A DNA stretch of 64,000 nucleotides, taken from contig JAYEKW010000062.1 in the NCBI GenBank assembly GCA_034716895.1, positions 17,885 through 81,884 on the forward strand. The letters run 5' to 3'. The DNA is from Fidelibacterota bacterium. Lineage in GTDB: Bacteria > Fidelibacterota > UBA8477 > JABMPR01. The position numbers and the translations under genes were made by a program. Shown here piece by piece: positions 8,743-43,152 of this stretch. Below the pieces are notes generated by a model. It did no database searches and was not told where the DNA came from. It worked only from the letters and a program-made list of their open reading frames with translations. Within the stretch, counting starts at the first letter, position 1. Every line of letters starts with the position of its first letter.

Positions 8743-8921
8743 GTTGTTCCTTCTCTCTGTCCCTTGATTTGGACCTGGTTAATTTGTATTATCTAACGGT
8801 AATACTGCATTATGAGTAAAAAAACAAGGATAATGTATCAAAGCAGTACCGAAATAAATGACAGATTATTTCTTAAATTGGTCGATTGGAAACAAAATTA
8901 TCATTCAAGGAAAGTGAAAGC

Positions 8922-9314
8922 ATGAGGAAAAGAAAATACTCTCCTGACAAAATGGCAAAAATATTTGCCGATAGAAGTCCTGAATTATCTGTGCGAAAAG
9001 TTGCCGAACTGCATGGAATAAGTGAATCGACTTATTACCGATGGAAAAGAGATTACAGCAACATAAATGACTGTGGTGATCAACTTGTCAAACAAAAAGT
9101 AGAGTTGAAGTCCCAGCAAAAATCCATTGCTTTGCTATCCCTTGATAAAGCGATGCTACTGGATATCCTACAGGGTCTACAGATCAAACCTGGGCAGAAG
9201 CGTGTTCTCGTGGATTATTTGCGAAAAACTTATATGGTAAGTGAGCGTAGAGCTTGCAAGCTGCTTCAGCTTAGCAGAACCAGTTATCGATATCTGGGTA
9301 AAAAACCGAAGTAG
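8922..9314 (+). mobile_element. IS3-family transposase remnant: OrfA HTH fused in-frame to the first ~25 residues of OrfB, with the DDE core missing
   Basis: MRKRKYSPDKMAKIF...GISESTYYRWKRDY...leucine zipper...SERRACKLLQLSRTSYRYLGKKPK then a stop. The RRAC..L..SRS.YYY motif is the start of the IS3 OrfB integrase, which is absent. The ORF in the track starts at 8886, but Met-13 is the likely start. Confidence 0.7.
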
Positions 9315-10597: not shown

Positions 10598-11266
10598 ATG
10601 AAACTATGGAAAAAAATGAGGGGTGGAGCTGCAGCTGTTGCAGCGCTGACGAAAACACAGGTCGAGGTTTCTGAAGTAAGCCAACTTCAGGCTGAAGTAG
10701 ATGAGTTACGGGCAGCTATTGGTGTAACATTTACTGGTCTGGGGAGCGCATATTATGACTATGCCAGCGAAAGTAAGGTGGAGGGGATTCCCAACGAAAT
10801 TGATGAACAGCTCAAGCTTTTATTTGACATGCATCATAAGTTGGCAGAGAAAGAACAACAACTCGCCGGAATAAAAGCAGAATATGAGGAACAGACCTTA
10901 TCATTGAGTCACTTTCGTGAATTCAAGGAGGCTCTTGATGAGGCGGGGGGCTCGATTGAATACGTCACCGTTGAGGAATCATCTCCCTTTTTGTACAGGA
11001 CCGTCAGTGAGATGGGATTCCCAGAGGATATTCTGGCTGGCATGATCATACGCATGGGCAACGCTTTGATTCCAGGGGGGGATACTCGCATCGAAGTAAA
11101 CGATAAAATTGTTCTCCTGGGCAAGAAGGAAGCTGTCGTCGGGCTACTGCATAAATTTAAAAGTGAAGGGGAACAGGAAATTGTTCCCGCCAAGAATGAT
11201 GAAAAAGATAAACCTACACCATCAACAAAGCCTGGCACAAAAAAAGCAACAGCAAAAAAGAGGTAG
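10598..11266 (+). CDS. Coiled-coil protein with a C-terminal TrkA-C (RCK_C) domain
   Basis: 222 aa. The C-terminal FLYRTVSEMGFPEDILAGMIIRMGNALIPGGDTRIEVNDKIVLLGKKEAV is a typical TrkA-C fold. It has an N-terminal coiled coil and a basic tail. Confidence 0.6.
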   Translation: MKLWKKMRGGAAAVAALTKTQVEVSEVSQLQAEVDELRAAIGVTFTGLGSAYYDYASESKVEGIPNEIDEQLKLLFDMHHKLAEKEQQLAGIKAEYEEQTLSLSHFREFKEALDEAGGSIEYVTVEESSPFLYRTVSEMGFPEDILAGMIIRMGNALIPGGDTRIEVNDKIVLLGKKEAVVGLLHKFKSEGEQEIVPAKNDEKDKPTPSTKPGTKKATAKKR

Positions 11267-11365
11267 AGGCAAAAACAGAAGGAATGAAAGCAGATGCTAA
11301 ATCTGAGTATCTAAAATAATTAGCTACTTTAAAAGATGGAAGAAAAGATCTTCAAAGCAAGTATG

Positions 11366-11513
11366 ACGCCACCGCAAAAAGTTCCTTACGGTTGGAAAAT
11401 CATGCAATATGCACGTACATCAATAATAATAACCAGATAGTATAATATTGACTATGTCTATAAATACCAATACTATGCGACCTCGCGGTTAGACTTTTTG
11501 CGAGGCCGTCAAT
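11366..11513 (-). repeat. MITE-like element, copy C (diverged, minus orientation)
   Basis: ccaccgcaaaaagttccttacggttggaaaatcatgcaatatgc matches the reverse complement of the 3' end of copies A and B. The far end (agactttttgcgaggccgtcaat) matches the rc of the 5' TIR. Confidence 0.7.
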
Positions 11514-11612
11514 ATTTGCCTTGTTATCGAAAAAAATCCCCGCGACTTTTTGCACATCTCATGCTTAACATAAGACTGGTTTAATTCAAGAAAGAGCACT
11601 AAATATCATTCG

Positions 11613-12500
11613 ATGAAAGAGAATAACATGAAAAAAAATGTATCATTAGTACTGTCTGGCGGAGGAGCGAGAGGAATCGCACATATTGGGGTAATTGAAG
11701 AACTGGAAAAGCAGGGCTATAATATTCACTCTATAACAGGGACCTCTATGGGCGCAGTGGTTGGTGGGGTATATGCTGCTGGAAAACTTAAGGAGTACAA
11801 GAGTTGGATAACATCACTCGATAAAATGGATGTGTTTAAACTGCTTGATTTTACGGTTGGTAAGCAAGGTTTTCTTAAGGGGAACAAGGTCTTTGAAGCG
11901 CTGAAAGAATTTATACCAGATTTGAGAATTGAGGATATGGAAATTAATTATTCTGCAACAGCTACTGATTTAACAAACAAAAAAGAAGTTCTTTTCACAA
12001 AGGGCAGTCTTTATGACGCAATGAGGGCGTCTGTTGCAATACCAAATGTCTTAACGCCAGTCAAATACAAGGGATCCATACTTGTAGATGGTGGAGTGGT
12101 AAATAATATTCCAATCAATTGTGCAAAACGAATTAAGAATGATATTTTAATTGCAGTTGATGTTAATGCTAACGTTCCTTTAATTAAAGTAAAAGACAAA
12201 CATGATAATTCTAAGGATAAAGACTCTTCATATTATCAGAAAGCACTAAGGAAAATTCAAAAGCAATTAAACATGGATATATCTTCTACAGATGAGGTTA
12301 GCTTAAGCTCTTTTGATATTATGAGTAAATCTTACGAAATGATGAGCGACAAAATAGTTGCCATGGCCCTTGATGTAAATCCACCTGATATTTTAATAGA
12401 AATATCAGGTGAGAGTTGTAGCATATATGATTTCTATGAGGCCGAAAGGTTGATCAGAATTGGACAAAAAGCCACAGTAAAAAGCGTGAATGGAAGTTAA
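11613..12500 (+). CDS. Patatin-like phospholipase (RssA-like)
   Basis: Has SLVLSGGGARGIAHIGVIEELEKQGY (oxyanion Gly-rich loop + R) and GTSMGA (GxSxG serine). Length 295 aa. The coding sequence is AT-rich. Confidence 0.85.
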   Translation: MKENNMKKNVSLVLSGGGARGIAHIGVIEELEKQGYNIHSITGTSMGAVVGGVYAAGKLKEYKSWITSLDKMDVFKLLDFTVGKQGFLKGNKVFEALKEFIPDLRIEDMEINYSATATDLTNKKEVLFTKGSLYDAMRASVAIPNVLTPVKYKGSILVDGGVVNNIPINCAKRIKNDILIAVDVNANVPLIKVKDKHDNSKDKDSSYYQKALRKIQKQLNMDISSTDEVSLSSFDIMSKSYEMMSDKIVAMALDVNPPDILIEISGESCSIYDFYEAERLIRIGQKATVKSVNGS

Positions 12501-12778
12501 TATTTAGTTTGAGTACTGTAGGCAAATCGAGGAGATGCATTTTATATGGGATGCAACGCAGAAGGAATTTAGCGAACTCAAAGAAGCCAGCGAAGAATCC
12601 TGGGAAGATCTTAAATCTGGAGTTGAGCTTTCGTGGAATTCACTCGGTAAGGCGGTGAGATCTGCCATTTCGAGGTTTAAATGAAATAGCCTAACAATCG
12701 CATGCACTCGGACATCAAAAAGCGTCGCTCCCCGTTCCTCGTCGCGTTGCTTTTTGCTGTCGATGATGGGCGTTATAC

Positions 12779-13099
12779 GTGAATGGATTAAATATGAAAA
12801 ATATTATTAAATGGATTATCGTATTACTCATAAGTAGTAGTTTTCTTGTTAATTGTGAGGGAAAAACAAAAAAACAAAAAAACCAATCAACGAATAAACC
12901 TATCGAAAAGATATCTCAGGATGCAAACATAAAAAAAGATAGCACTCCAAGTGGAAACCCTAGGATAATTCAAAAACAAATAAAATCTGTTGATGATATA
13001 GTAAAAATAGATGCGAAATTTGTAAAACCAATTGACTATACAAATGTGATTTCTCTAAATGAGTTAACTGTTCTGGAAAAAAAAGAAAAAATTTATTGA
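12779..13099 (+). CDS. Small lipoprotein, hypothetical
   Basis: Signal peptide with lipobox (LLISSSFLVNC). Lys-rich and extremely AT-rich coding sequence. Confidence 0.5.
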   Translation: MNGLNMKNIIKWIIVLLISSSFLVNCEGKTKKQKNQSTNKPIEKISQDANIKKDSTPSGNPRIIQKQIKSVDDIVKIDAKFVKPIDYTNVISLNELTVLEKKEKIY

Positions 13100-13253
13100 T
13101 TTAATACTGCCTGGGATTCTAATTGCTAAATATAAATATTCTCAATTACTCGAGAAAGTAAAAGTTATTTCTAAGAAGGAAACAAAGACGGCAAAAGAAC
13201 AAGAACACATAGATGAATTAATTAAAACATACAGTGCCAAGGATGTAGAAGAC

Positions 13254-13697
13254 TTGAAAAACCGTTTATTAACGCACCCAACAAGCATTATTTTGGCTCA
13301 AGCTTCTATAGAAAGTGGCTGGGGAACATCTCGCTTTTTTCTTCAAGGAAGAAATCTTTTTGGTGTTTGGTCTTTTAATAAAAATGAACAGAGAATTCAA
13401 ACTAAAGGAACCCGAGACGGGAAACATATGTATGTAAAAAAATATTCTACTATTTCTGAATCAATCGAAGATTATTTTAAAATATTAGCCAGAGGAGGAG
13501 CATATGTCCGATTCAGGGCAAGAAGAGCATCGACAAATAATCCTTATGAAATAATTAAGACTCTTGATAAATACTGTGAACTTAGAGAAAAATATGTTGT
13601 TAAATTAAAGAACCAAATTAGTTATAATAAATTTGAAAAATATGATGCGTATGAATTAGATCCTCAATACCTGCGCAATTTTCATTTGATGATGTAA
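13254..13697 (+). CDS. Glucosaminidase-domain protein (FlgJ/Bax-type mannosyl-glycoprotein endo-beta-N-acetylglucosaminidase family)
   Basis: ILAQASIESGWGTSRF is the family signature, and LFGVW follows it. The TTG start is uncertain. AT-rich. Confidence 0.65.
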   Translation: MKNRLLTHPTSIILAQASIESGWGTSRFFLQGRNLFGVWSFNKNEQRIQTKGTRDGKHMYVKKYSTISESIEDYFKILARGGAYVRFRARRASTNNPYEIIKTLDKYCELREKYVVKLKNQISYNKFEKYDAYELDPQYLRNFHLMM

Positions 13698-13836
13698 AAA
13701 GGGGAAATGTGCGCCAGCCAAGCGAAGCTGGTGCTTTCAAGCTGGACAATCCAGGCCACACAAAGGCTGGTAAGTAAGTGTGGTTATCTTAAAGTGAACA
13801 TTACCCCAACAAAAACGTTAGGACCCCCTGGAGGGG

Positions 13837-14448
13837 ATGATGAATACATTTGTTAATGTAATAATATTGATGTTGATGCTTTTGAACCCGTTTCTGTTGG
13901 TTGTTTATCTCACTGACATCATGAGAAATAAAAGTGACAGATATTTTGCAAGGTTAATGTTTTCATCAGGCCTGATTTCTATAACTGTATTTTCTCTATT
14001 TGCAGCAGTGGGTGATTATATATTTAGAACTGTACTGCAAGCTGAAATGGCTTCCTTTCAAATATTTGGTGGGATTATATTTCTCATTATTGCTTTAAAA
14101 TTTGTATTCAACAGCGAATCTGCAATGGACAGTTTGCGAGCCGATTCAAAACATCTAAGTACAAATATCGCTATGCCAATCATGGTTGGCCCCGGAACCA
14201 TTGGCGTGAGTATAATGGCTGGTGAAAGACTCGAGTTAAAGATGGCTATTCTTGCGGTTGTAGTGAGTGTAACCATATCAATCACTATCATCGTTCTTCT
14301 GAAGAAGCTATTTGATGTTATTGCCAGAAAACGAGAGTCCCTGATTGAGCAATACATCGCTGTTTCAGGTAAAGTAACCGCCTTGATCCTGGGGACTTAT
14401 TCTATTGATATGATAATGGCAGGATTAAAAATCTGGCTAAATAAATAG
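13837..14448 (+). CDS. MarC family (UPF0056/NAAT) integral membrane protein
   Basis: 203 aa with six hydrophobic segments. N-terminal NPF...Y motif typical of MarC. Confidence 0.7.
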   Translation: MMNTFVNVIILMLMLLNPFLLVVYLTDIMRNKSDRYFARLMFSSGLISITVFSLFAAVGDYIFRTVLQAEMASFQIFGGIIFLIIALKFVFNSESAMDSLRADSKHLSTNIAMPIMVGPGTIGVSIMAGERLELKMAILAVVVSVTISITIIVLLKKLFDVIARKRESLIEQYIAVSGKVTALILGTYSIDMIMAGLKIWLNK

Positions 14449-14613
14449 CAACGTAAGTAGCCCGTATATTTTATAAAGCAGTACTCTTTGACTTGTTATT
14501 CCAATTTCTGACTGCTTATGTCGGAATAAATCGGTCTTCAACGGTCATACCGTCCGTTTTCGGTTAATGGTAAAGCCAAACAAATCTAGAACAAAATTAA
14601 ATTACACAACTAT

Positions 14614-14849
14614 GATGGTCTCGCAAAAAGTACCTCTCGCCCGCCTGCGTATAACTTCGTGCGGGCAGGCAGAGCACGCAGAGCGTTGTATTGAGCCCTT
14701 CGGTTAAGCTCAGGAACCACCTGTCGAAATAGTGCAGAGTATTGATATTAATGGATATAGAAGTATTTGCGTTATGTGGTAAAGATTAAATGAGTTAGGG
14801 CGTATTTGATGATTTTTCAACCGTAAGGAACTTTTTGCGGTTTCGTCAA
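14614..14849 (+). repeat. MITE-like intergenic element, copy A (with a ~55-bp internal insertion relative to copy B)
   Basis: Near-identical to 17941-18121 apart from the extra block cgttgtattgagcccttcggttaagctcaggaaccacctgtcgaaatagtg. The termini tctcgcaaaaagtacc / ggaactttttgcggtttcg form terminal inverted repeats. Confidence 0.85.
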
Positions 14850-15236
14850 CTTTCAATCCAGATATAGTATGATCTAGTCATATACAACCGAATTTCGCGT
14901 TTTCCAGTCAGATCAGTGCAAACTCCAGTAAATACAAATCTCGCACACAGGAAGTCAAACACAATGACAGTGCTTGCATTTAAGCATGTGGCATGGTAAT
15001 ATATCGTGAACTAATCATTAGTGGACATATAGTAGCGCATGCTATTATTAGTATACTGTTATATTGTTTTGTAATAAGCAAAAAGAAAAGACGTGAAGGG
15101 GGATAGGGGACGAGCAAACTTCTGGAGCAACAACACCAGGTTATCCAATACAGTATACGACAGGTAATGGGTATGTTTAGGCTGGAGAAAACAAAAACTA
15201 AGAAAAAACCGATTATGGGACAGAATTTATAACATT

Positions 15237-15905
15237 ATGAAAGTACAAAAAAAAGAACCTCTGGTAATTAAGGATTGTGCGCTTATCGCCCTGGCAACTG
15301 GCAGGAAAGCTCGGACACTCAAAGAACTACGCGATAATCTTGAAATAATTGAATCGGAAAGTATTTACTACCATTTCTGGGGCAGTCTTCTGCGCCCCCG
15401 TTTTGAGGATGCGGAATATCATAATGATTTTGCTGCGTGGGCCGCTCATAGTTTGAATGATAAAAAAATGGCCGAACAACTCGGGGTGGTGGATCCTACA
15501 ACATTTACAACCATGGATAATCTGCGATTTGAGTTACTGGAAATTATTGATGAAAGAATAGATGAGTTAGATGTTTTGCCCACAGCAAGCCGGGATAAGC
15601 AATTTGAATTTATCAGCTCAGAGATTGTTGTGTTTACAACCATGCAGACAGTCATTGAACCTGAGATAATGAAAACGCTTGTGTTAGAACTATCACTGGG
15701 CAGTATTTTTTATCACTTTATCGATGCGCGACGCAGGACATCCGAATCAATTGATGATTTCAGCCATTGGCTCATGTCATTTGGTGATGAATATGAAGAT
15801 GCCATCAACGGCATCGCCGATATTGACCCATACTTTTCACCCCTCACCGATTTACGCAATCAGTTGAGTGAAACCCTAATGAACCAGATACAGGATAAAA
15901 AATGA
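15237..15905 (+). CDS. Conserved hypothetical protein, translationally coupled to treT
   Basis: 222 aa, acidic and soluble. Its stop overlaps the treT start (ATGA at 15902-15905). No recognisable catalytic motif. Confidence 0.6.
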   Translation: MKVQKKEPLVIKDCALIALATGRKARTLKELRDNLEIIESESIYYHFWGSLLRPRFEDAEYHNDFAAWAAHSLNDKKMAEQLGVVDPTTFTTMDNLRFELLEIIDERIDELDVLPTASRDKQFEFISSEIVVFTTMQTVIEPEIMKTLVLELSLGSIFYHFIDARRRTSESIDDFSHWLMSFGDEYEDAINGIADIDPYFSPLTDLRNQLSETLMNQIQDKK

Positions 15906-17143
15906 ATCGTTTGATATTTGATTACGCGCCGATAACAGGACTGGATGTAATTGAACAGCTCCAACAGTTAGCCAAACCGCTTAAAGGGTTGCGCGTTGTG
16001 CATGTCAATTCCACCAAAGCCGGGGGTGGGGTTGCAGAAATATTGGATAAAATGATCCCGCTCATGAACGATTTGGGAATTGATACGAGCTGGGAAGTTA
16101 TCAATGGAAATCCTGATTTTTATAGCTGCACCAAACATTTCCACAATGCTATTCAAGGCAATAATGTACAGATACCAGCGCGTTTGCTACAGGCTTACGA
16201 GAGGACAAACACGGAAAATGCCAGTCGTCTGGAAGCAAAACTCCGCGATGCAGATGTGGTCTTTATACATGATCCGCAACCGGCTCCACTGCTGCAAAAC
16301 ATTAAAGGCAGAAAGGGAAAATGGATCTGGAGATGTCACATCGATGCAAATAAACCTAACAGGCCAGTTTGGAAGTATTTGCGAAATTATATCGCTCAGT
16401 ATGATGCCAGTATATTCTCCCTGGCTGCTTTCGCCCAACCCATGCCGCATCCTGTTTATCTCATTCCTCCCAGTATTGATCCATTGAATGAGAAAAATAT
16501 TGAGTTGGATACCAATGAGATATCTTCAGTTTGTGATCAGTTCAATATCGACCGGGATGCCCCTTTGTTGGTGCAGATCTCTCGTTTCGATCGCTTTAAG
16601 GACCCCATTGGAGTCATTCAGGCTTTGAAGCATGCAAAAAAGTTTGTACCCAATCTGCAATTGGTTCTTGCAGGGGGTGGCGCCAGCGATGATCCTGAAG
16701 GTGAGGAAGTATTAGAGGAAGTGAGATTGGCCTCAAATGGTGATCCGGATATTCACATTTTAGAGCTTCCCAACGATGCTCATCGCCAAATAAACGCACT
16801 TCAATCAGCGGCTACCATCGTCATTCAGAAATCAATTAGGGAAGGCTTTGGCTTAACCGTTACTGAGGGTATGTGGAAGCAAAAACCAGTTATCGGGGGA
16901 GATACTGGTGGGATACGACTCCAAGTGATAAATCATCATACGGGTTTTTTGGTTAATTCTCCTGAAGGGGCTGCCTTGCGTATTCGACATCTTCTTGGTA
17001 ACCCACAAAAATTATCAGAAATGGGTGTGAAGGCAAAAAAGTTTGCGAGAGAAAACTTTTTAATCACAAGGCATATCCGTGAATACTTGACTCTCATGCT
17101 TTCGTTGGTAAGCGGCACAAAACACAGAATTGACCTAAAATAA
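15902..17143 (+). CDS. treT: Trehalose glycosyltransferring synthase TreT (GT4; NDP-glucose + glucose to trehalose)
   Basis: 413 aa. Collinear with archaeal/bacterial TreT blocks: VHVNSTKAGGGVAEIL, FHNAIQGN, HDPQPAPL, WIWRCHID, PPSIDPLNEKNIEL, QISRFDRFKDP, DDPEG, SIREGFGLTVTEGMWKQKPVIG, HTGFLV, AKKFARENFLITRH. Confidence 0.8.
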   Translation: MNRLIFDYAPITGLDVIEQLQQLAKPLKGLRVVHVNSTKAGGGVAEILDKMIPLMNDLGIDTSWEVINGNPDFYSCTKHFHNAIQGNNVQIPARLLQAYERTNTENASRLEAKLRDADVVFIHDPQPAPLLQNIKGRKGKWIWRCHIDANKPNRPVWKYLRNYIAQYDASIFSLAAFAQPMPHPVYLIPPSIDPLNEKNIELDTNEISSVCDQFNIDRDAPLLVQISRFDRFKDPIGVIQALKHAKKFVPNLQLVLAGGGASDDPEGEEVLEEVRLASNGDPDIHILELPNDAHRQINALQSAATIVIQKSIREGFGLTVTEGMWKQKPVIGGDTGGIRLQVINHHTGFLVNSPEGAALRIRHLLGNPQKLSEMGVKAKKFARENFLITRHIREYLTLMLSLVSGTKHRIDLK

Positions 17144-17166
17144 AACCATTACTGGAAGATTATTAT

Positions 17167-17940
17167 ATGAAGAGACTAAACAATGATATAGACCTGCGTA
17201 AATTTTATAAAAAGCTGGATTCGGATGGCCCAAAATTGCTCTTCTTGGATTATGATGGAACATTGGCACCTTTCTGCGATGACCCACAGTTGGCCTATCC
17301 ATATCCAGGTATAAAAAGTATGCTTGATGCAATCATCAGTAATCCCACAGTACGGCTAGTTATTATCACGGGAAGGTCTATTAGCGAACTGCAAGCTTTA
17401 CTTGACCTGAAACAGGATGTAGAGATATGGGGCACCCACGGTCATGAGCACCTGCTCCCCAATGGAGACTATTCCTTGGTTGATCTTAGCCCGAATCAAA
17501 ACATGGGTTTAAGCTTGGGTGTTGATGCGGCTTTGTCTGTAGAGCCTTTGCTCAGGGTAGAAGAGAAACCTGGTGCGGTTGCTTTTCATTGGCGAACTAT
17601 TCAAGCCAAAGATGTTGAGAGATTTCAAAACCAATTAACAATGAAACTTGAAAATATTTCCCAGCATCACGAGTTGGTACTTAAGAAATTTGATGGGGGG
17701 CTGGAGCTTATCTCACCAACAATGGACAAAGGTAGGGCTGTTCGAGAAGTGCTGCGAGAAGTAACCCCAAATACGACAGTGGCTTACCTTGGAGATGATC
17801 TTACGGATGAGGATGCTTTCTGGGAACTAAAATATAAAGGACTGACAGTACTTGTTAGAGATGAATTGCGTGAAACACAGGCGAACCTCTGGATACAACC
17901 ACCTGACGAGCTTCTTCAGTTTTTAGAAAAATGGAAATAG
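17167..17940 (+). CDS. otsB: Trehalose-6-phosphate phosphatase (HAD family)
   Basis: LLFLDYDGTLAPF (HAD motif I), LVIITGRS, and YLGDDLTDEDAF (motif III). 257 aa. Confidence 0.85.
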   Translation: MKRLNNDIDLRKFYKKLDSDGPKLLFLDYDGTLAPFCDDPQLAYPYPGIKSMLDAIISNPTVRLVIITGRSISELQALLDLKQDVEIWGTHGHEHLLPNGDYSLVDLSPNQNMGLSLGVDAALSVEPLLRVEEKPGAVAFHWRTIQAKDVERFQNQLTMKLENISQHHELVLKKFDGGLELISPTMDKGRAVREVLREVTPNTTVAYLGDDLTDEDAFWELKYKGLTVLVRDELRETQANLWIQPPDELLQFLEKWK

Positions 17941-18121
17941 GATGGTCTCGCAAAAAGTACCTCTCGCCCGCCTGCGTATAACTTCGTGCGGGCAGGCAGA
18001 GCACGCAGAGGCGCAGAGTATTGATATTTATGGATTTAGGGGTATTTGCGTTATGTGGTTAATATTAAATGGGTTAGGGCGTATTTGATGATTTTTAAAT
18101 TACTTTTTGCGGTTTCGTCAA
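17941..18121 (+). repeat. MITE-like intergenic element, copy B, inserted between otsB and otsA
   Basis: Begins at the base after the otsB stop codon. 181 bp, with the same TIRs as copy A. Confidence 0.85.
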
Positions 18122-18167
18122 ATAGAAGAAACTGAACGAAAAATTATCCAAGAGGTAAGCAAAAAAA

Positions 18168-19643
18168 ATGAATATGAAACGCCACAGATTAATTATCGTA
18201 TCAAATAGGTTGCCAGTTGTAGTAAATAAAAATATAAGTGGATCACTAGAGGTGAAGCCGGGATCGGGAGGACTGGTCACGGCGCTTGCCCCCGTTTTAC
18301 GTAACCGCGGAGGTGTTTGGCTTGGGTGGTCCGGACTAACTACAGAAAATCCTCGAAAGATTGGGAATTTGCTGTCTTCTCTCGATGACAGAATTGGGTA
18401 TTCACTGGAATCTGTAACATTGGATGAGAACGAGATTGAAAACTACTATAAGGGATTTTCCAATGAAACTTTATGGCCTCTTTTCCATGATCTGATTGAC
18501 CATTGTAAATTTAAACCAGAGTATTGGAAGACCTACCAAAGTGTCAATATGAAATTTGCTCAATCATTAAAAAAGATCATTAAAAAAGATGATTTTATCT
18601 GGATTCATGACTATCACCTGATAAGCATGATCCGTTTTCTAAGAGAGCTGGGTGTAAACAATAAAATTGGTTTCTTCCTGCATATACCCTTTCCGCCTAC
18701 AGATATCTATACACGCCTACCTTGGCGAGTTGATATCTTAGGTGATCTTCTGCAATATGACCTGGTTGGATTTCAATCAGCTCGCGATAGGAGGAATTTC
18801 ACAAGCAGTGTTCGGACACTGATCGACAAACCAAAAATTGAAGGGAAGGGGCAAGTCATTAACATCGTGCGAAAAACACGAACTATGAGGGCTGGAGTCT
18901 TTCCGATCAGCATAGATTATAAAGAATTCGACGACTCAGCAAGTTCAAAACCTGTGACACACAAGGTGGTGACGAAAGAAAAATATTTTGAGGAGCAAAA
19001 GGTAATACTGGGCGTTGATCGTTTAGATTACACAAAAGGTATCCCTGAGCGTCTGGAAGCATTCAGAGAGGCTCTCCGAAGGTATCCAGTCCTGTTGGGC
19101 AAGTTGAGCTTGATCCAAATTCTAGTCCCAAGTCGCAGAGATATACCACATTATGAGAACCTCAAAATTAAAATTGAAAGATTGGTTAGTGAGATAAATG
19201 GGGAGTTTTCACATTCCGGGTGGACACCAATTGAATACCACTTCCGAGCAGTCAGCCGAGATGCATTGTTATCCTATTATCGAATTGCTGAGATCGCGAT
19301 TGTGACTCCATTGAAGGATGGGATGAATCTGGTAGCAAAAGAGTACTGTGCATCAAATCCAGAAGGTATTCTCATCTTGAGTGAATTTGCCGGCGCGGCG
19401 GCTCAGCTAAAATCTGGAGCTTTACTTGTCAATCCACATGACTCGGTAGCGTGTGCTGAAGCAATTCAAAGAGCGGTGCACATGCCAGAATCCGAACGTA
19501 AGGTTAGGATGAAGAAACTCAGAAAAAATGTACATCGCTACGATATTTATTGGTGGGTAGAGAATTTCTTGGATGCCGCATTTGCATCGAAGTTGAGTGA
19601 GTTTTCTCTTATTGCAGACTATACCCCCCTCGCAGAAGGATGA
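18168..19643 (+). CDS. otsA: Alpha,alpha-trehalose-phosphate synthase (GT20)
   Basis: RLIIVSNRLPVVV...GSGGLVTALAPVLRNRGGVWLGWSG...IWIHDYHL...LGVDRLDYTKGI...NPHD are canonical OtsA motifs. 491 aa. Confidence 0.9.
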   Translation: MNMKRHRLIIVSNRLPVVVNKNISGSLEVKPGSGGLVTALAPVLRNRGGVWLGWSGLTTENPRKIGNLLSSLDDRIGYSLESVTLDENEIENYYKGFSNETLWPLFHDLIDHCKFKPEYWKTYQSVNMKFAQSLKKIIKKDDFIWIHDYHLISMIRFLRELGVNNKIGFFLHIPFPPTDIYTRLPWRVDILGDLLQYDLVGFQSARDRRNFTSSVRTLIDKPKIEGKGQVINIVRKTRTMRAGVFPISIDYKEFDDSASSKPVTHKVVTKEKYFEEQKVILGVDRLDYTKGIPERLEAFREALRRYPVLLGKLSLIQILVPSRRDIPHYENLKIKIERLVSEINGEFSHSGWTPIEYHFRAVSRDALLSYYRIAEIAIVTPLKDGMNLVAKEYCASNPEGILILSEFAGAAAQLKSGALLVNPHDSVACAEAIQRAVHMPESERKVRMKKLRKNVHRYDIYWWVENFLDAAFASKLSEFSLIADYTPLAEG

Positions 19644-19727
19644 ATAAGACAACGGTTAAATTTCATGAAACAACTGGAGCATGAAGCCCAGTTATCGTGA
19701 CGAAAACTTGACATCAAGGAGGAAAGC

Positions 19728-20471
19728 ATGTTACGTAGCGTAAAAGAAATTATGGCGTGTAGTCTAGAATCTAAGTCTGGGGAAATTGGTAAATCAAAAG
19801 ACTTATTATTTGATGATGACAAGTGGGTGATCCGATATTTAGTGGCGGATACGGGTAAATGGCTTCTGAGAAGGCAAATTCTTATTTCCCCGATTTCGTT
19901 GAAGGGAATAGATTGGGATACACAGCAATTACCCGTTGACCTTTCCAAAGAACAAATAGAGTCTGCACCCAGTATAGAAACAGATATGCCCGTTTCCAGG
20001 CAGTTTGAAATTGAATTGTCCAAGCATAACAATTGGCCTTATTACTGGACCGGTGAGCAGGCAATGGGAGCTATGCTGACACCGGGAGGCGCATACCCAA
20101 CTATCTTTGATAAAGACAAGTCGGAGGCTGATGTTAAACGTGATAAGCATCTCCGCTCAGTAAATGAGGTTACAGGCTACCATCTCTTAGCGGAAGATGG
20201 AGAGATCGGTCATGTTGAAGACTTTATTGTTGATGATGAGGCTTGGGCAATCCGCTATATCGTTGTGAATACTCGGAACTGGCTCCCCGGTAAAAAGGTT
20301 CTGGTTTCACCATTTTGGTCCAAAACAATTGATTGGGCTGAAAGGAAAATCCTGTTCGGGGTTACCATGGAGCAGATCAAAAACAGTCCAGAGTATGACC
20401 CAACAAAGTCTATCACTCCAGATTATGAGGATCTTCTGTTCGATTATTACGGAATACTGAAAGACATTTAA
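19728..20471 (+). CDS. Tandem PRC-barrel domain protein
   Basis: Two repeats of G..IG.V.DF..DD..W.IRY.V....W...K.L.SP. Confidence 0.65.
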   Translation: MLRSVKEIMACSLESKSGEIGKSKDLLFDDDKWVIRYLVADTGKWLLRRQILISPISLKGIDWDTQQLPVDLSKEQIESAPSIETDMPVSRQFEIELSKHNNWPYYWTGEQAMGAMLTPGGAYPTIFDKDKSEADVKRDKHLRSVNEVTGYHLLAEDGEIGHVEDFIVDDEAWAIRYIVVNTRNWLPGKKVLVSPFWSKTIDWAERKILFGVTMEQIKNSPEYDPTKSITPDYEDLLFDYYGILKDI

Positions 20472-21031
20472 GAGCATGAGTAACATCTGTATCAAATAAA
20501 AGTATGTTCATTTAACAACAATCTGAGAATATACCGGACCATAGATCAAGACAGATTAGCATAGCTGCAATTAATAATAATGGTTCATCATAATAATGCG
20601 TACCTGGATACAATCATTAAGATTGGGGGTCAATAAAATATTCTGGGGTACAAAGGTATAAGGGTTATAAAGACTGTGTGAGAATAGGGCAACTCTTACC
20701 CCATGCTTCAGCTTGGGGTTTAACCGACCACAAGAAATTCGGGGGGGGCTATAGCCCAACTGTGTAGCTGATTAATCTTGGGCTAAAGCCCTTTTTTGTG
20801 TGGATTCTAGATCCCCAAGCTGCATTTCGATAAACTCAATAACCAGCATAGGGTAATTGATAAGTTATTGTTATTCATGTCATTGCATAAGCTCAGTGTA
20901 TCATAATCGTTGTAACTGACTCAAATACAGGTGATTACAGATTTTCGTGAGAAACTTCTGTTGTTAATGTCCCTCCCGTTGGCGAGGAGTATACAAACCG
21001 TAAGAGTCCAAGAAAAATTAATATAGTAATA

Positions 21032-21045
21032 GTTAGTGCACTAAC
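21032..21045. promoter_or_regulatory. Perfect 14-bp palindrome GTTAGTGCACTAAC, candidate MarR-family operator
   Basis: Located ~80 bp upstream of the marR-like gene start. MarR dimers bind such palindromes. Confidence 0.4.
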
Positions 21046-21123
21046 AACTTGTGTAGAGATGATTCGTTTGATATATTCAGCCGTGACTTAAAGAAATAAA
21101 TCAAACGTGAAGAGTAAATTAAA

Positions 21124-21639
21124 ATGACCAAAACAACTGATTCAAAACCCGAAGATAGACAGCTCCCATTTGATCTTCAAATCTTGCAGGCGTTACGTCA
21201 AATTATTCGTGCCATTGATATTCATTCACGGAAACTTAAATCCACCTACAATACCACGACCCCCCAGCTCATTTGCCTGGGTATTATTAAAGATCACGGT
21301 TCTTCCACAGTTACTCGAATTGCCGGGCAAGCCTATTTGAGCACAAGTACGGTAGTGGGAATCCTGGATCGTCTGGAAAAAGAAAGCTTGATATTGAGGG
21401 AAAGAGATAAAAAGGATCGTCGGCTCTGGAATGTCATTCTCACAGAAAAAGGGAAAGCACTTTTAAAGCAGATTCCGTCCCCGTTGCACGATGGTTTACT
21501 CAATGCTTTGCAAAATCTTCCAGAGCGTGAGCAAGCCAATATTGCAGTCTCCCTGTTAAAGATCGTTAATCTGATGGGTGCTGAATCAGTAGAAGCTGCT
21601 CCTATTTTGGAGACCGCACAGATACTCCCCGTAAAATAA
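21124..21639 (+). CDS. MarR-family transcriptional regulator
   Basis: 171 aa with a winged HTH (ITRIAGQAYLSTSTVVGILDRLEKESLILRERDKKDRR). Confidence 0.8.
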   Translation: MTKTTDSKPEDRQLPFDLQILQALRQIIRAIDIHSRKLKSTYNTTTPQLICLGIIKDHGSSTVTRIAGQAYLSTSTVVGILDRLEKESLILRERDKKDRRLWNVILTEKGKALLKQIPSPLHDGLLNALQNLPEREQANIAVSLLKIVNLMGAESVEAAPILETAQILPVK

Positions 21640-21766
21640 AATACATCTATGAATAATACCAATAACCCACAATAACCATTATGCTGAGAACCAAATTTAT
21701 TCTATAACAATCAACTGTTTTACCTCTTGTTACCATCATACCAATTATTTTTTCAGGAAAGCGAAG

Positions 21767-22045
21767 GTGAACATGTTTTCCATATCGGAAACTGCAAAAA
21801 CACGCTTATCAGAAGCTAAAAAAGAACTAAAAGGTCATGCAGGAATGGTCGTGCGGCTCGATGCTTCAACTGATCACAAGGGAGCATTCAAACTATACAT
21901 TGATACAATCCACCCAGGCGATTATAAAATCTATGGTGATGATGAAGAACCAATCCTGGTTTTAGAGGAAACCCTTTTACCCAAACTGGCAAAAACTGGA
22001 CTAGAGTACGATGAACAGTTCTCGTTCGTTCATGTGAGTGACTAG
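21767..22045 (+). CDS. Small hypothetical protein, probably co-transcribed with the downstream symporter
   Basis: 92 aa, soluble. Only 20 bp separate it from the SSS gene. Confidence 0.45.
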   Translation: MNMFSISETAKTRLSEAKKELKGHAGMVVRLDASTDHKGAFKLYIDTIHPGDYKIYGDDEEPILVLEETLLPKLAKTGLEYDEQFSFVHVSD

Positions 22046-22065
22046 GTCTACATAAAGGAGTTCTT

Positions 22066-23493
22066 ATGGCTTTTCTAGATTATGTAATTTTCGTCATCTA
22101 TATGTTGATCATCCTGGGGGTTGGCTATTATTTCTATCGTAAAAATGAATCAGCTGAAGATTACTTCGTAGGTGGTCGTAGCATTTCTCCAACTCATATT
22201 GGTTTGTCAATTGCTGCTACAGATGTTGGTGGTGGCTTTTCAATCGGTTTGGGGGGTCTTGGATATCTGATGGGACTCTCAGGAAGCTGGTTATTATTTA
22301 CAGGGTTATTGGGAGCTTGGTTATCGGCTGTTTTTATTATTCCTCGACTAAAAACTTTGGATTTAGAGCAAGGTTTTATGACTTATCCTGACTTTCTACG
22401 TCATCGGTACAATGGAAAAGTCGCCATGGTAGCAGCTGTGATCTCAGGTGTTGGGTATCTGGGATTTACCAGTGGTCAAATCCTGGCAGGAGCGAAGCTC
22501 ATGTCTGGTTCAGTGATCTCAACAGCACCCTGGGGACTTGAACCACTCACATTCTCTATCTATGTCATCGGGTTTATCATCGTGGCTTACACAGCTCTCG
22601 GTGGTTTGAAGGCAGTTATTTACACCGATACTGTACAATGGATCATCTTAATTAGTGGTCTTATCCTGTTTGCCATCCCCTTTGCCATCATGGAAACTGG
22701 TGGTCTTGGGGCCTTGCGTGAGCAACTCCCTGTGGAATATTTTTCTTTCTCGAACATACAGCCAATTACATTTATCAACTGGCTCCTGACCATCGTACCA
22801 ATTTGGTTGGTAGCCATGACTTTGTATCAACGGGTCTTTGCCAGTCGCTCGGTTAAAGATGCTCAAAAAGCCTGGTATATTGCCGGTGCTTTTGAATATC
22901 CCGTCATGGCTTTTACCGGTGTCATCCTGGGTATGATTGCCCGGGTATTATTCCCTGGTGTTGAAGCGGAAATGGGAGTGCCCATTCTGTTAAGGGAAGT
23001 ACTGCCAATAGGAATTACGGGAATTGTAATTGCGAGTTACTTCTCCGCTATAATGTCCACAGCAGATAGCTGCATACTTGCTTCATCCGGAAATTTTGTA
23101 AATGATTTAATCGAGAAATTGAGTCCCAAATCATATAATGTAAAACAGCTGATCCATATTTCGCAGCTTGTAACCTTAGCAGTTGGAATAATTGCCATTC
23201 TTTTGGCCAGCTCTTTCACCACGGTTCTGGAAACCATACTGTATGCCTATCAGTTCATGGTTGCCGGGCTTTTTATACCAACTCTGGCTGCATTCTTCTG
23301 GAAAAAAGCAACTCCGCTAGCTGCATTATGGGCTATGATTGGTGGTGGCACGTCTGCCCTGACTATGATTATTACCCAGGTCGATTTGCCTTTGGGCTTG
23401 GATCCCACGTTTTATGGTATGCTAATTTCCGCAGTTACACTCGTTGCAGTTTCATATTTAAGGAAGGATGAGGTGAACCATCTCCAAGACTGA
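22066..23493 (+). CDS. Sodium:solute symporter family (SSS) transporter
   Basis: 475 aa, ~13 TM. The N-terminus DYFVGGRSISP...GLSIAATDVGGGFSIGLGGLGY is typical of PutP/PanF-type SSS carriers. Confidence 0.85.
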   Translation: MAFLDYVIFVIYMLIILGVGYYFYRKNESAEDYFVGGRSISPTHIGLSIAATDVGGGFSIGLGGLGYLMGLSGSWLLFTGLLGAWLSAVFIIPRLKTLDLEQGFMTYPDFLRHRYNGKVAMVAAVISGVGYLGFTSGQILAGAKLMSGSVISTAPWGLEPLTFSIYVIGFIIVAYTALGGLKAVIYTDTVQWIILISGLILFAIPFAIMETGGLGALREQLPVEYFSFSNIQPITFINWLLTIVPIWLVAMTLYQRVFASRSVKDAQKAWYIAGAFEYPVMAFTGVILGMIARVLFPGVEAEMGVPILLREVLPIGITGIVIASYFSAIMSTADSCILASSGNFVNDLIEKLSPKSYNVKQLIHISQLVTLAVGIIAILLASSFTTVLETILYAYQFMVAGLFIPTLAAFFWKKATPLAALWAMIGGGTSALTMIITQVDLPLGLDPTFYGMLISAVTLVAVSYLRKDEVNHLQD

Positions 23494-23557
23494 CATCACA
23501 ATTAACTATAAAACCTGTCAACTTCAACATGGTCCGTTAAGCGATCGGGTCTATATC

Positions 23558-24328
23558 ATGAAAATTGTACCAGAAAGAGTACAGGACGTACTGGCATTGG
23601 CGGAATCGTTGGCTCTTGAGCATCATTACTCCAAGATATTTGCCAAGATACCCATAGCTCTCATACCAGAGTTTATGGCCCAGGGATATGAGGAAGAAGC
23701 ACGCATTCCAGGTTTAGGTGAAAAGCCCAAAGGAATCGCTTTTATGTCAAACTTTATTACCAAGAAACGTAAAAAGCCACATAAAACGAGCGAGATAATG
23801 AAAGTAAAGTCTGCCACACTTACACAGGGGCTTTCACGAAAAAGCACAATACTTTCAAAGGATTATTCAATTAAAGAAGCTGAAATAAAAGATAGCCCAG
23901 GCTTGGCATTACTCTACCGTGAGATTTTTGCGAGCTATCCGTTTCCAATTACGGATCCAATTTTTGTCGCTCAAAGCATGGCTGAAAATGTGCGTTATTT
24001 TGTGATCAGACACAAACGGGAAATTGTGGCTGTAGCTGCGGCCGAAATGGACTATGATTGTCGAGCTGTGGAAATGACTGATTTTGCTACAATTCCAGCC
24101 TATAGAGGAAATCAGCTGGGACAAATGCTTTTGGATCACATGGAAACAGCTATGCTTACAGAACCCATAGATACAGCCTATACCATTGCCAGGGCTGTGT
24201 CTTACGGAATGAATATTACCTTTGGACGGGCAGATTACGAATTCGCCGGCACGCTAATTAATAATACTCATATCGGCGGATCCATCGAAAGCATGAATGT
24301 CTGGTATAAACAACTCATCCATATTTAA
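23558..24328 (+). CDS. ablB: GNAT acetyltransferase, putative beta-lysine N6-acetyltransferase
   Basis: 256 aa. Has a C-terminal GNAT fold (AAAEMDYDCRAVEMTDFATIPAYRGNQLGQMLL). It lies immediately upstream of a lysine 2,3-aminomutase in the same orientation, the arrangement known for N-epsilon-acetyl-beta-lysine synthesis. Confidence 0.65.
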   Translation: MKIVPERVQDVLALAESLALEHHYSKIFAKIPIALIPEFMAQGYEEEARIPGLGEKPKGIAFMSNFITKKRKKPHKTSEIMKVKSATLTQGLSRKSTILSKDYSIKEAEIKDSPGLALLYREIFASYPFPITDPIFVAQSMAENVRYFVIRHKREIVAVAAAEMDYDCRAVEMTDFATIPAYRGNQLGQMLLDHMETAMLTEPIDTAYTIARAVSYGMNITFGRADYEFAGTLINNTHIGGSIESMNVWYKQLIHI

Positions 24329-24351
24329 TCAACAAAAACTGGAGTCTTCTT

Positions 24352-25839
24352 ATGCATGGAAAACTACATTCAAACAAAGAATTTAATAAATATCAAACTG
24401 CTGAGACTATTGATGATCTACCTGACCTCGTGACTGATCATTCTGAACTTGATGAAATTAGCGAGATTGAGATACCGGATGCTATTAAAGATCCAGTAAC
24501 TCTGCAGGATCTAGCGCACCGAGACTTTTCGTCAGATTTGTTTTGGCAGAAAATCCCAGCTTTTAAAAATGTAGACCGCGAAACTTTTATGGACGTGAGC
24601 TTCCAAAATAGCAATTCTGCAACAAAAGTAGATCATCTTGATGAGCTTTTGGAAGATTTGGTTCCCGCAGCTTTCCTTGATGATGTGCGTGAAGGAATGA
24701 GGTTGGCGCCCATGAATCTGCGCCTTTCCCCCTATGTTATTAGTCTCATCGATTGGGATAACCCCTATGATGATCCGCTTCGGATTCAATTTATTCCGGT
24801 GGCATCCACGCGTTTGGCTGATCATCCAAAATTGTCATTAGATTCCCTGGAGGAGCAGGCGGATTCTCCTACATCGGGTCTGGTGCATCGATATTTTGAT
24901 AAAGTGCTTTTTCTACCCACTGATGTGTGTCCGGTCTATTGTCGGTTCTGTACGCGCAGTTATGCCATTGGGAGTGATACAGATCAGGTGACAAAAATGA
25001 GTTTTAAGGCGGTCCCCAATACTTGGAATAAGGCGTTTGCCTACATTGCTTCGAGACCGGAAATTGAAGATGTCGTCATTTCTGGTGGAGATACTTACAT
25101 GTTAAAACCTCACCGCATTAAACAAATCGGTGAAACACTATTAGCCATACCCCATGTACGACGGTTGCGCTTTGCCACAAAAGGGCCAGCAGTGATGCCC
25201 ATGAAAATTATTTCTCAACCGGAGTGGACAAATGCCATAATCGACATTGTCAATCAGGGACGGGAAATGAGCAAAGAGGTGGTCGTTCATACTCATTTCA
25301 ATCATAGCAGCGAGATTACGTCCATTACCCGAGAAGCCATGGATCTGTTTTTTAAAGCCGGTGTTACGGTACGCAATCAGAGTGTGCTCTTACGGGGTGT
25401 TAACGATACACCAGAAGCAATGATCAACCTGGTAAGACAATTATCACTCATGAATGTTCAGCCCTACTATGTCTATCAACATGATATGGTTCAAGGGACT
25501 GAAGAATTGAGGACCACGCTAAAAGATGGTCTAGAGCTGGAACGCCACGTGAGAGGTGCGACTGCTGGATTTAACACCCCCACATTTGTAACGGATGCGC
25601 CTGGTGGTGGTGGGAAGAGAGATATCCATAGTTATGATTATTATGACGAGGTAACGGGAATTTCTGTTTACCGCAGCCCCAGTGTTGAAGATGAAATGGT
25701 CTATCTCTATTATGATCCCATTCACCTGTTGTCAGAAAAAGGTCAAAAACTCTGGGAGGATCCTTCGATGCATGAAAAAATGATCCTGGATGCCATTGAG
25801 AAGGCGGGTTACCAGGATTTTTCACAGGCTTATGAATAG
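24352..25839 (+). CDS. ablA: Lysine 2,3-aminomutase (radical SAM, KamA/AblA family)
   Basis: Has CPVYCRFCTRSYAIG (CxxxCxxC) and the KamA N-terminal SPYVISLIDWDNPYDDPLRIQFIP. The ORF carries a ~50-aa N-terminal extension, and the true start may be an internal Met. Confidence 0.85.
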   Translation: MHGKLHSNKEFNKYQTAETIDDLPDLVTDHSELDEISEIEIPDAIKDPVTLQDLAHRDFSSDLFWQKIPAFKNVDRETFMDVSFQNSNSATKVDHLDELLEDLVPAAFLDDVREGMRLAPMNLRLSPYVISLIDWDNPYDDPLRIQFIPVASTRLADHPKLSLDSLEEQADSPTSGLVHRYFDKVLFLPTDVCPVYCRFCTRSYAIGSDTDQVTKMSFKAVPNTWNKAFAYIASRPEIEDVVISGGDTYMLKPHRIKQIGETLLAIPHVRRLRFATKGPAVMPMKIISQPEWTNAIIDIVNQGREMSKEVVVHTHFNHSSEITSITREAMDLFFKAGVTVRNQSVLLRGVNDTPEAMINLVRQLSLMNVQPYYVYQHDMVQGTEELRTTLKDGLELERHVRGATAGFNTPTFVTDAPGGGGKRDIHSYDYYDEVTGISVYRSPSVEDEMVYLYYDPIHLLSEKGQKLWEDPSMHEKMILDAIEKAGYQDFSQAYE

Positions 25840-25874
25840 TCCTGAGTTAAATGCGATACTAAATAGGAGCATAT

Positions 25875-26249
25875 ATGCCATTTCAATTTAGTGTTGAATA
25901 TCCACTGGATATTGTGATTGGAAGAGTTGTGGGAGAAGGGAACTTTTCAGAAACCTTTGGTGAGATCAAGAAATCAATTATTACCAAGCAAGGGGAGGGA
26001 ATAACCAGACGTTTGTATGATTTCCAAGATAGTGACTTCTTTTTTGATATTGATAAGGCTATCCAACTCGTTAACATTATTCAGCATACTGGCAAAATGT
26101 TAAACTCTAAAAAGATAGCCCTCCTTTTTCAGGAAATCCCTGAGACATTCGATCTGGAGCAATTAGCCCCACACTTGGAGTCAGAAGATGTTTCCATCGG
26201 AATTTTTATCGAACAGGCTAAAGCAGTAGAATTCCTAAATCAAAAATAG
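25875..26249 (+). CDS. SpoIIAA/STAS-like small protein (DUF3478-like), paralog of 7971-8336
   Basis: 124 aa, collinear with the other small protein (..G..SETF..I...L.YDF.D...V.I.EQAKAVEFL). Confidence 0.45.
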   Translation: MPFQFSVEYPLDIVIGRVVGEGNFSETFGEIKKSIITKQGEGITRRLYDFQDSDFFFDIDKAIQLVNIIQHTGKMLNSKKIALLFQEIPETFDLEQLAPHLESEDVSIGIFIEQAKAVEFLNQK

Positions 26250-26465
26250 AAAGGAGTCTGATTCCACCTGGCAGATTATAAGGAGAATTTAGGGATATAG
26301 TTCATTATGTTTTTTTGCCATACATAATGGTAAGAAAATTAGCACTAAAAGGGCGAGGATATACAATCTTGACGAAACCGCTAGAAGTATCTGAAAATTC
26401 ATGAAATGTGCCCTAAAACCATTAAATACAACCACATATAGTGAATGCTCCTAATCCATATATAT

Positions 26466-26560
26466 CAACACTTTGCGTCATTTCGATGAACTCAATACAA
26501 CGCTCTGCGCGCTCTGCGCCCTGCGAGAGGGACTTTTTGCGAAGGCGTCAATCTTAAAAG
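26466..26560 (-). repeat. Partial MITE-like element (5' portion, minus orientation)
   Basis: The rc reads attgacgccttcgcaaaaagtccctctcgcagggcgcagagcgcgcagagcgttgtattgag, collinear with the 5' end of copy A but lacking its internal hairpin. Confidence 0.65.
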
Positions 26561-26571: not shown

Positions 26572-27222
26572 ATGAAAATTAAAAGAGGGAAACAGCTTGG
26601 TTTATTCGTCATCATATTAAGTATGTTTATGCTTATAGCTTGTGAACCGGGGAATCAGGAAAATGTCGATATCAAAACAAGTCAACAGGCATTGGTTGAG
26701 CAAGATGAAATTAAAGAAGTCATCAAACGAGCTGAGGCCGCTGAAGCTCGGATGGCAGAACTGGTGAGCAGACTTGAGAACATTGAAGATCAGTTGGGCG
26801 AAAGAGATCAAAAGGTCTCAGAGCTAAAGCAGCAATTGGTTAACTACAAGAGAGCTATAACTGTTTTTGTCATAATTGTTTTTGTATTACTACTAATTAT
26901 TCTCTACAGTATGCGTGAAAATATCCAAAGCCTCAAATCATTTCCTATGGAATTCACCAGGTTTGGTCAGCGTTTGAGGAAAGCAACAAAACGCAGTTCT
27001 GGTAGGAGCGGTCGTGGAAAAGAAAAGTCTGGGGAGAAAATAAAAAAAGCACAACCAGGTTCTTCTCGATCAGCCAGAAAGAAGATGAGCAGGAAGCCAG
27101 GAAAAACAGATGAACCCAAATCAAAAGCTGAACCAAATTCAACCCGGACCAGCACCAGGAAAACCAAAGATATTGGGAAAAAGACAGTCCCAAAGCCTGC
27201 TTCAGGAAAACCTAAAAAATAG
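26572..27222 (+). CDS. Coiled-coil lipoprotein with a second TM segment and a basic Lys/Arg/Ser-rich tail
   Basis: Start MKIKRGKQLGLFVIILSMFMLIAC (lipobox), preferred over the ORF-track start at 26473, which lies inside the repeat. Confidence 0.55.
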   Translation: MKIKRGKQLGLFVIILSMFMLIACEPGNQENVDIKTSQQALVEQDEIKEVIKRAEAAEARMAELVSRLENIEDQLGERDQKVSELKQQLVNYKRAITVFVIIVFVLLLIILYSMRENIQSLKSFPMEFTRFGQRLRKATKRSSGRSGRGKEKSGEKIKKAQPGSSRSARKKMSRKPGKTDEPKSKAEPNSTRTSTRKTKDIGKKTVPKPASGKPKK

Positions 27223-33080: not shown

Positions 33081-33132
33081 GCGAACAAAGTAGTCAGTAC
33101 TGATCCAGCTGGAAATATTTATCTCAGAAGGG

Positions 33133-34632: not shown

Positions 34633-34837
34633 ACCAGGATTTGATCCTTGTCTGGATGAAAATAGTTGTAATTTCTCATGCAGTTTTGAAGTCCAATTGG
34701 TATAAGTACTTGCAGAGAAAAAAAGTCAAACTCAAGCATAATTCTTCAATGAATTGCCGTCATGGCAATACATATTAAAAGGTTATGGATCATAAAGTTG
34801 TAATATGGCAATGATATCAAAGTTAGGGTAGTTAAGA

Positions 34838-36496: not shown

Positions 36497-36510
36497 GAGG
36501 TGAAAGAACT

Positions 36511-38728: not shown

Positions 38729-38760
38729 GTGTAAAGTCTCCGGAGAAAAGGAAAGAAGTC

Positions 38761-43138: not shown

Positions 43139-43152
43139 GACAGTAGACGAGA

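Follow-up and report, generated by a model that had tools for sequence, protein, structure and literature searches.

The closest described counterparts of the elements considered here are bacterial miniature inverted-repeat transposable elements (MITEs). RUP of Streptococcus pneumoniae and Nezha of cyanobacteria are MITEs derived from IS630, with TA duplication at the target site. The Correia repeat-enclosed elements, also associated with TA duplication and confined to a single genus, Neisseria, insert between and within operons and are co-transcribed with them, their terminal inverted repeats (TIRs) pair in the RNA, and functional effects have been shown; they are orphan MITEs for which we know of no transposase. 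In the 64-kb window analysed here, a stretch of contig JAYEKW010000062.1 from a Candidatus Marinimicrobia metagenome-assembled genome (MAG), the first-pass annotation described two MITE-like repeats, A and B, around genes of trehalose synthesis. We conclude that these repeats are very probably copies of a non-autonomous DNA transposon, namely, a MITE of 148-236 bp with 19-nt TIRs and no gene, which is present in four copies (A-D) in the window.

The family resembles RUP and Nezha in size (100-300 bp), possession of TIRs and target-site duplications (TSDs), lack of open reading frames (ORFs), intergenic location, multiple copies and the existence of indel variants. However, TA duplication, typical of RUP and Nezha, occurs here only at the level expected by chance, and no IS630 parent was found. 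The similarity to the Correia elements extends to orphan status, insertion into an operon and TIR pairing in RNA (predicted in the present case), whereas the sequence, the TA duplication and the restriction to one genus set the Correia elements apart from this family, the TIR of which is found in MAGs that carry the labels of several phyla. To our knowledge, the family is unrelated in sequence to RUP, Nezha and the Correia elements. It is a genuine MITE, and a new family of a kind, the bacterial MITE, that is already known and fairly ordinary.

Copies A (236 bp, 14613..14848) and B (181 bp, 17940..18120), both on the plus strand, lie where the first-pass annotation had placed them, with each end correct to within 1 nt. 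The pairwise alignment that it had proposed as a check shows that their similarity is not confined to short motifs: 169 of the 181 aligned bases match (93.4% identity) across three blocks, comprising 70 bases at the 5' side, all identical, a middle block of 87 nt with 91% identity and 20 nt at the 3' end, again all identical. A 32-nt probe from the shared 5' part had no matches in shuffled sequence. The previously noted length difference of 55 nt holds as a total but not as a single internal block, being the sum of a 48-nt indel (14684-14731 in A), bordered by the direct repeat GCAGAG, and a 7-nt indel near the right end of A (~14823-14829). Approximately half of the 48-nt block is retained in copy D and in a relative from another genome (locus L074), and the 7-nt block is retained in copy C, so that the sequence was apparently lost from B rather than gained by A, contrary to the earlier view of A as carrying simply an extra block. 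On this comparison, B is best classified as a deletion derivative, and A is not simply an insertion derivative. The inner part of the 48-nt block is a hairpin module that also is found in loci L077 and L045.

The first-pass annotation was correct about A and B but not about the full number of copies. Sites with the right-end probe pointed to two further copies, C and D, on the minus strand, and repeat finding combined with a profile search (nhmmer) showed both to be full, if diverged, members of the family. Copy C (148 bp, 11364..11511; E-value 2e-35), the most diverged of the four, is located between a gene for a TrkA_C-domain protein and a patatin-like gene, and copy D (181 bp, 26370..26550; E-value 5e-53) is located between the ORFs at 25875-26249 and 26572-27222. 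Copy A (E-value 9.5e-57) lies 388 bp upstream of the DUF5752-treT-otsB genes, and B lies between otsB and otsA. Pairwise identity among the four copies is 76-93%, and D shares 94.7% identity with the L074 copy over 150 bp. All four copies are intergenic, as had been stated for A and B, and are flanked by co-directional genes, with two copies co-oriented with these genes and two in the opposite orientation. They are also non-coding: the longest stop-free stretches span 36-57 codons and are not conserved between copies. The four copies sit within a 15-kb stretch rich in osmoadaptation genes, including those for a K-Cl cotransporter, the TrkA_C-domain protein, DUF5752-TreT-OtsB-OtsA, a sodium/solute symporter and a lysine-2,3-aminomutase-like enzyme.

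Every copy ends in a 19-nt TIR, TGAYGNNNYCGCAAAAAGT, which can be written as (T)GAYG-N3-YCGCAAAAAGT. Within a copy, 13-16 of the 19 bases match between the two ends. In A, for instance, the left TIR, TGATGGTCTCGCAAAAAGT (14613..14631, plus strand), matches the right one, ACTTTTTGCGGTTTCGTCA (14830..14848, plus strand), at 14 of the 19 positions. The TIRs of B occupy positions 17940..17958 and 18102..18120 (plus strand), and the first base of the left one is G, unlike the T found in the other copies. A, B and C all have a perfect core, CGCAAAAAGT. The ends are thus indeed inverted repeats, as proposed previously for cgcaaaaagt/actttttgcg, although that motif covers only the 10-nt core of a TIR that extends over 19 nt. 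Between the ends, the right-hand ~125 bp are well conserved across the family and its hosts, and the left part is pieced together from GC-rich hairpin modules, as exemplified by the hairpin at 14639..14670 in A and 17966-17997 in B (plus strand), recognized in the folds and in the family alignment. In columns 113-131 of that alignment (A4), a motif resembling the TIR core, CGCAGAGT/CGCAAAGT, occurs internally after GA(C) and, in the consensus fold, is paired with the right TIR; it may be the remains of an earlier end or an additional half-site for transposase binding.

Insertion events are marked by duplications in the flanks. B is bracketed by AAATAG on the plus strand (17935..17940 and 18120..18125, with the 4-bp core AATA at 17936-17939 in the left copy), and D by AATCTT (26365..26370 and 26550..26555, plus strand). 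The flanks of A, AACTAT (14608..14613) and AACTTT (14848-14853), both on the plus strand, match at 5 of 6 positions. We pooled 24 elements bounded by TGAYGNNNYCGCAAAAAGT-type TIRs from the window and other genomes and derived the expectation from mismatched flank pairs. A perfect duplication of the 4-bp core was found in 9 of the 24 elements, against 0.48 expected, and seven more match at 3 of the 4 core positions. By contrast, 2-bp flank identity of the kind left by TA duplication was observed in 2 of 24 elements versus 1.96 expected.

The flanks follow the pattern A-NNNN-[T GAYG...CRTC A]-NNNN-T, and in most copies two models of the duplication fit it equally well. The elements could have TG..CA termini and duplicate 4 bp with a target preference for A/NNNN/T, or they could have GA..TC termini and duplicate the 6 bp ANNNNT. 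In the three elements with a first base other than T, namely, B (G), L056 (A) and L080 (A), the odd base reappears in the right flank, five bases in, and this mirroring favours the 6-bp duplication. Deviations at the last base, seen in L059 and L056, are not mirrored in the other flank. The target AATCTT is common to three independent insertions, D, L029 and L045, with one mismatch in L045. The family copy in L077 (3800-3995 of CAZVSF010000235.1) splits a perfect 16-bp palindrome, GCTTCAAATTTGAAGC, exactly in the middle, and the AAATTT at the centre of this palindrome is the duplicated target.

Comparison with other assemblies shows that the element is present or absent at given loci and is repeated in the source organism. 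A Candidatus Neomarinimicrobiota MAG (L059) contains a region syntenic to positions 31959-39551 of the window, with 72-81% nucleotide identity, and carries a 151-bp family copy with the TSD TTTT in an intergenic region that lacks the element in the window; the contrast is one of presence and absence within a region, the intergenic DNA being too diverged for a nucleotide-exact alignment of the empty site. In the independent Logan assembly of run SRR26901924, which is 99.96-100% identical to the window, the contigs correspond to positions 14820-17970, 18092-20607 and 20636-26393, and the breaks fall within A, within D and at the two ends of B, a pattern that a repeated element should produce. 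The only break outside the MITE copies is a 28-nt gap at 20608-20635, where there is no obvious repeat.

The insertion of B can be reconstructed in detail. In line with the earlier placement of its start just after the otsB stop, B begins at the stop codon of otsB: its first base, 17940, is the last base of the trehalose-phosphatase gene (otsB, 17167..17940, plus strand; PF02358), the stop codon of which is inside the TSD, so that the left copy of the TSD is the last sense codon plus the stop codon (AAA TAG). The proposed displacement of the trehalose-6-phosphate synthase gene (otsA, 18168..19643, plus strand; PF00982, E-value 6e-140) likewise is borne out and amounts to ~185 bp. The gap between otsB and otsA is 227 nt and shrinks to ~42 nt once B and one copy of the duplication are removed, whereas in relatives the two genes abut or overlap. 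In three of these (L115, L116 and L117/L118), with OtsA 64-66% identical to that of the window, the gene order is MarR-DUF5752-TreT-OtsB-OtsA-PRC and the otsB-otsA spacing is 14 nt in L115 (GCA_013203185.1), -4 in L116 (labelled Marinisomatota UBA8477) and 2 in L117/L118; no family element is present anywhere in ~13 kb of these relatives. Because the target duplication regenerated the stop codon, OtsB is unchanged and ends in ...FLEKWK, the same motif as in the relatives; had B begun with the consensus T, translation of OtsB would have continued for 27 codons inside the element. The otsA gene keeps its own ribosome-binding site, AAGAGG. The B spacer is probably co-transcribed with otsB and otsA and, in single-sequence folds, it is able to fold via TIR pairing; a terminator-like site was not detected in it. 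The possibility that A, B and the intervening genes make up a composite transposon was considered and rejected: A is flanked by one duplication and B by another, their outer sides do not match, and in relatives the genes that they enclose are a native part of the operon.

Two observations concern the setting of the operon. A MarR regulator gene, which in the relatives is directly upstream of DUF5752-treT-otsBA, is located downstream of the operon in the window (21124-21639), and synteny with the relatives breaks at copy A (region 14449-15236). Beside A, positions 14460-14511 form a 52-nt inverted match, 71% complementary, with positions 36303-36354, each segment being just downstream of unrelated genes; this may be a chance match or another repeat family.

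Could the MITE, in addition, have been co-opted by its host, with B serving as an RNase III processing site or as an internal promoter that uncouples the expression of otsA from that of otsB? The Correia elements of Neisseria act in both capacities, the TIRs of B are predicted to pair as RNA in a stem of 12 plus 5 bp, and in D a promoter-like score is obtained for the right-end TTGACG combined with an A-rich hexamer downstream of it. Nevertheless, promoter-like matches in the region are no more common than in shuffled sequence (43 versus 42.7), and the candidate promoter reads inward which, in the orientation of B, is antisense to otsB. We therefore regard such co-option as unlikely.

With respect to the MITE itself, the first-pass interpretation is well supported: the size, lack of coding capacity, TIRs, TSDs, dispersed copies in both orientations, presence/absence pattern and assembly breaks all agree with it, an autonomous partner being the one component that was not found. 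A DDE-type transposase encoded elsewhere would bind the 19-nt TIRs and mobilise the element in trans; the element would be excised or copied and then inserted into AT-rich intergenic DNA cut in a staggered manner, and repair of this cut would leave the short TSD. In the case of B, insertion at the last codon and stop codon of otsB converted a junction of 14 to -4 nt, as in the relatives, into the 227-nt spacer. Several observations weigh against this interpretation. Copy C has no recognizable TSD and that of A is imperfect. No autonomous element with these TIRs is present in the 81 genome loci and 21 viral loci retrieved in our scans; all TIR pairs in these loci are 100-285 bp apart, and none with a spacing above 300 bp is convincing. 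A metagenome scan with the left-end motif TCGCAAAAAGTNCCTCTCGC returned seven loci, all of them chance matches without an element, so that the family looks rare in public data, and the copy count in the source organism is known for the 64-kb window only.

The search for a transposase-bearing parent was unsuccessful. ORFs adjacent to solitary TIR matches encode ArgJ, terminase, YqaJ and similar proteins but no transposases, and no Y1 transposase is encoded among the ORFs scanned. In L033 (6600-7362 of JAISCZ010000046.1), a frameshifted pseudogene of an IS630-family DDE_3 transposase adjoins a TIR. However, this IS630 copy ends in ...CACGGCAC/TA/G, like ISPna1 and ISMae29 (the annotated relatives end CTAG/T...GTCA), and interrupts a CTAG of which the L028 element has an unbroken version; hence, it is nested in a deltaproteobacterial TIR element rather than being its parent. 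A second IS630-like fragment is found just upstream of the pseudogene, on the other strand. The window itself encodes, at 8886-9314, 2 kb from copy C, a truncated IS3-type orfA (HTH_Tnp_1) with the start of the orfB helix-turn-helix and without a catalytic domain, the only IS3-type gene in the window; it did not lead to a parent either, as there is no TIR of the MITE type upstream of it and a search of the protein collection recovered no homologue other than the protein itself. TG..CA termini combined with duplications of 3-5 bp are characteristic of the IS3 (IS407 or IS150 groups), IS21 and IS481 families. The TGA...TCA termini of the present family along with a 4-bp TSD would be in keeping with an origin from IS3 (IS407 group), IS21 or IS481, and this likeness may be taken as a lead. 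It depends on a 4-bp TSD with the outer T and A counted as part of the element, and fails with GA...TC termini and a 6-bp ANNNNT duplication; moreover, no element of these types carrying the TIR of the family was found.

The truncated orfA near copy C and the differing internal indels among the copies could also be taken to mean that each copy is a separate remnant of a full-length insertion sequence that once occupied that site and underwent internal deletion. We consider such an origin very unlikely: the internal sequence and the junctions are common to the copies, across genomes as well, which points to a single deleted ancestor that then spread, and the IS3 remnant has no TIR of this kind beside it.

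Another alternative, that the repeats are a structured cis-regulatory RNA or a small-RNA gene (an attenuator, terminator or riboswitch-like element) for the osmolyte genes that spread by duplication rather than transposition, appears highly improbable. The location of four copies in a 15-kb stretch rich in osmoadaptation genes and the conservation of the right-hand part among hosts would be compatible with such a function, as would the moderately stable single-sequence folds, made up mainly of TIR pairing and a single GC hairpin, with a z-score of -2.7 for B; for A, the z-score is only -1.3. However, RNAalifold analysis of a ten-sequence alignment gave a consensus fold of -4.03 kcal/mol with a compensatory change in 1 of 11 pairs, that is, essentially no covariation. 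A search of the whole window against Rfam at the gathering threshold detected only a tRNA outside the copies, and there was no match in 11200-18300 even at E-value <=1. No terminator-like site is present inside any of the four copies, their mixed orientation relative to the flanking genes is at odds with a role in cis, the same operon lacks the element in relatives, and the flanking duplications mark insertion events. Finally, REP/REPIN- or IS200/IS605-type palindromic elements, which a tyrosine transposase (Y1/RAYT or TnpA) mobilises in single-stranded form, also are short, intergenic, hairpin-forming repeats without a nearby transposase, but lack TIRs at the ends of the element and target-site duplication, so that, with 19-nt TIRs at the very ends and duplications far above chance, this assignment is scarcely credible here.

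The MITE family, as defined by profile matches, extends beyond the window to Candidatus Neomarinimicrobiota contigs (L047, L048 and L059), Bacteroidota MAG274 contigs (L045 and L074) and a Lentisphaeria contig (L077), although the taxon labels of short contigs should be treated with caution. The TIR is distributed more broadly. Scanning the genome collection with the right TIR returned the 81 loci, of which ~70 are estimated to be expected by chance; yet, a matching inverted end within 400 bp was seen in more than 20 cases, whereas chance alone should produce an estimated ~0.1 among all loci. In MAGs of several other phyla, TGAYGNNNYCGCAAAAAGT bounds unrelated interiors of 100-285 bp. These include ~10 loci with near-identical copies in Deltaproteobacteria-labelled MAGs, 8 loci in an unclassified bacterium, and elements in Verrucomicrobia- and Proteobacteria-labelled MAGs. 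In the Verrucomicrobia-labelled MAGs (L056, 3547-4163; L083, 4108-4584; L072; L075), TIR elements of 103-145 bp are embedded in a larger repeat, ~480-650 bp long and non-coding, of which further copies are found both in the same genome and in others. A scan of viral contigs with the right TIR returned the 21 loci, with neither an element nor a convincing TIR pair, and BLAST searches of plasmids with the TIR, copy A and a deltaproteobacterial element as queries produced nothing relevant. The same was true of literature searches on the TIR sequence and on ISDol1, and a full-text search recovered no paper mentioning both Marinimicrobia and MITEs. Altogether, MAGs with the 19-nt end are labelled as Marinimicrobia, Verrucomicrobia, Deltaproteobacteria, Proteobacteria, Lentisphaeria and Bacteroidota. 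It is tempting to speculate that (T)GAYG-N3-YCGCAAAAAGT defines a cross-phylum superfamily of orphan miniature elements that follow the target rule A-NNNN-T and are moved by an IS family, or a domesticated host transposase, so far not connected with these ends, but we put this forward as a tentative and rather doubtful proposal.

Elsewhere in the window, an efflux operon contains two ORFs bracketed by inverted repeats. The first (43153-43503, in region 43121-43580) belongs to the 23S_rRNA_IVP (four-helix-bundle) family (Pfam E-value 1.6e-37), is bracketed by 26-nt inverted repeats (AGAATTCAGAATTCAGAAGACAGTAG) and lies between genes for an RND adaptor and a MacB-type ABC ATPase, resembling an inverted-repeat-bounded cassette dropped into the operon. 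The second (45607-46020, in region 45529-46121) encodes a GxxExxY / PD-(D/E)XK (PDDEXK_3) protein, is bracketed by 33-nt inverted repeats that are 94% complementary (...GCCACAAAGGCACAAAGACACGAAG) and is located between two MacB-like permease genes; repeats of the same style (CAnAnAG units) are found again within several TIR elements. A 42-nt repeat present five times at 56912-58390 falls within the gene (56552-58513, minus strand) for a protein that has FG-GAP repeats and a Por secretion tail, and represents ordinary protein-repeat periodicity.

Overall, the analysis adds a defined MITE family, with ends, duplication and consensus, for Marinimicrobia, a phylum for which all known genomes come from uncultured organisms, and should help in annotating and assembling genomes of this lineage. 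The current understanding of how MITEs work is unchanged, and the mild interest of the family lies in the otsBA insertion and the cross-phylum TIR. The repeated element explains the fragmentation of short-read assemblies of the source organism at these points. Given that A and B are direct repeats sharing 70 identical bp and flank DUF5752-treT-otsB, recombination between them could delete these genes. Copy B represents a natural case of a mobile element splitting the translationally coupled otsB-otsA pair with the upstream stop codon preserved, and the wide spread of the same TIR around differing interiors provides a lead towards the responsible transposase.

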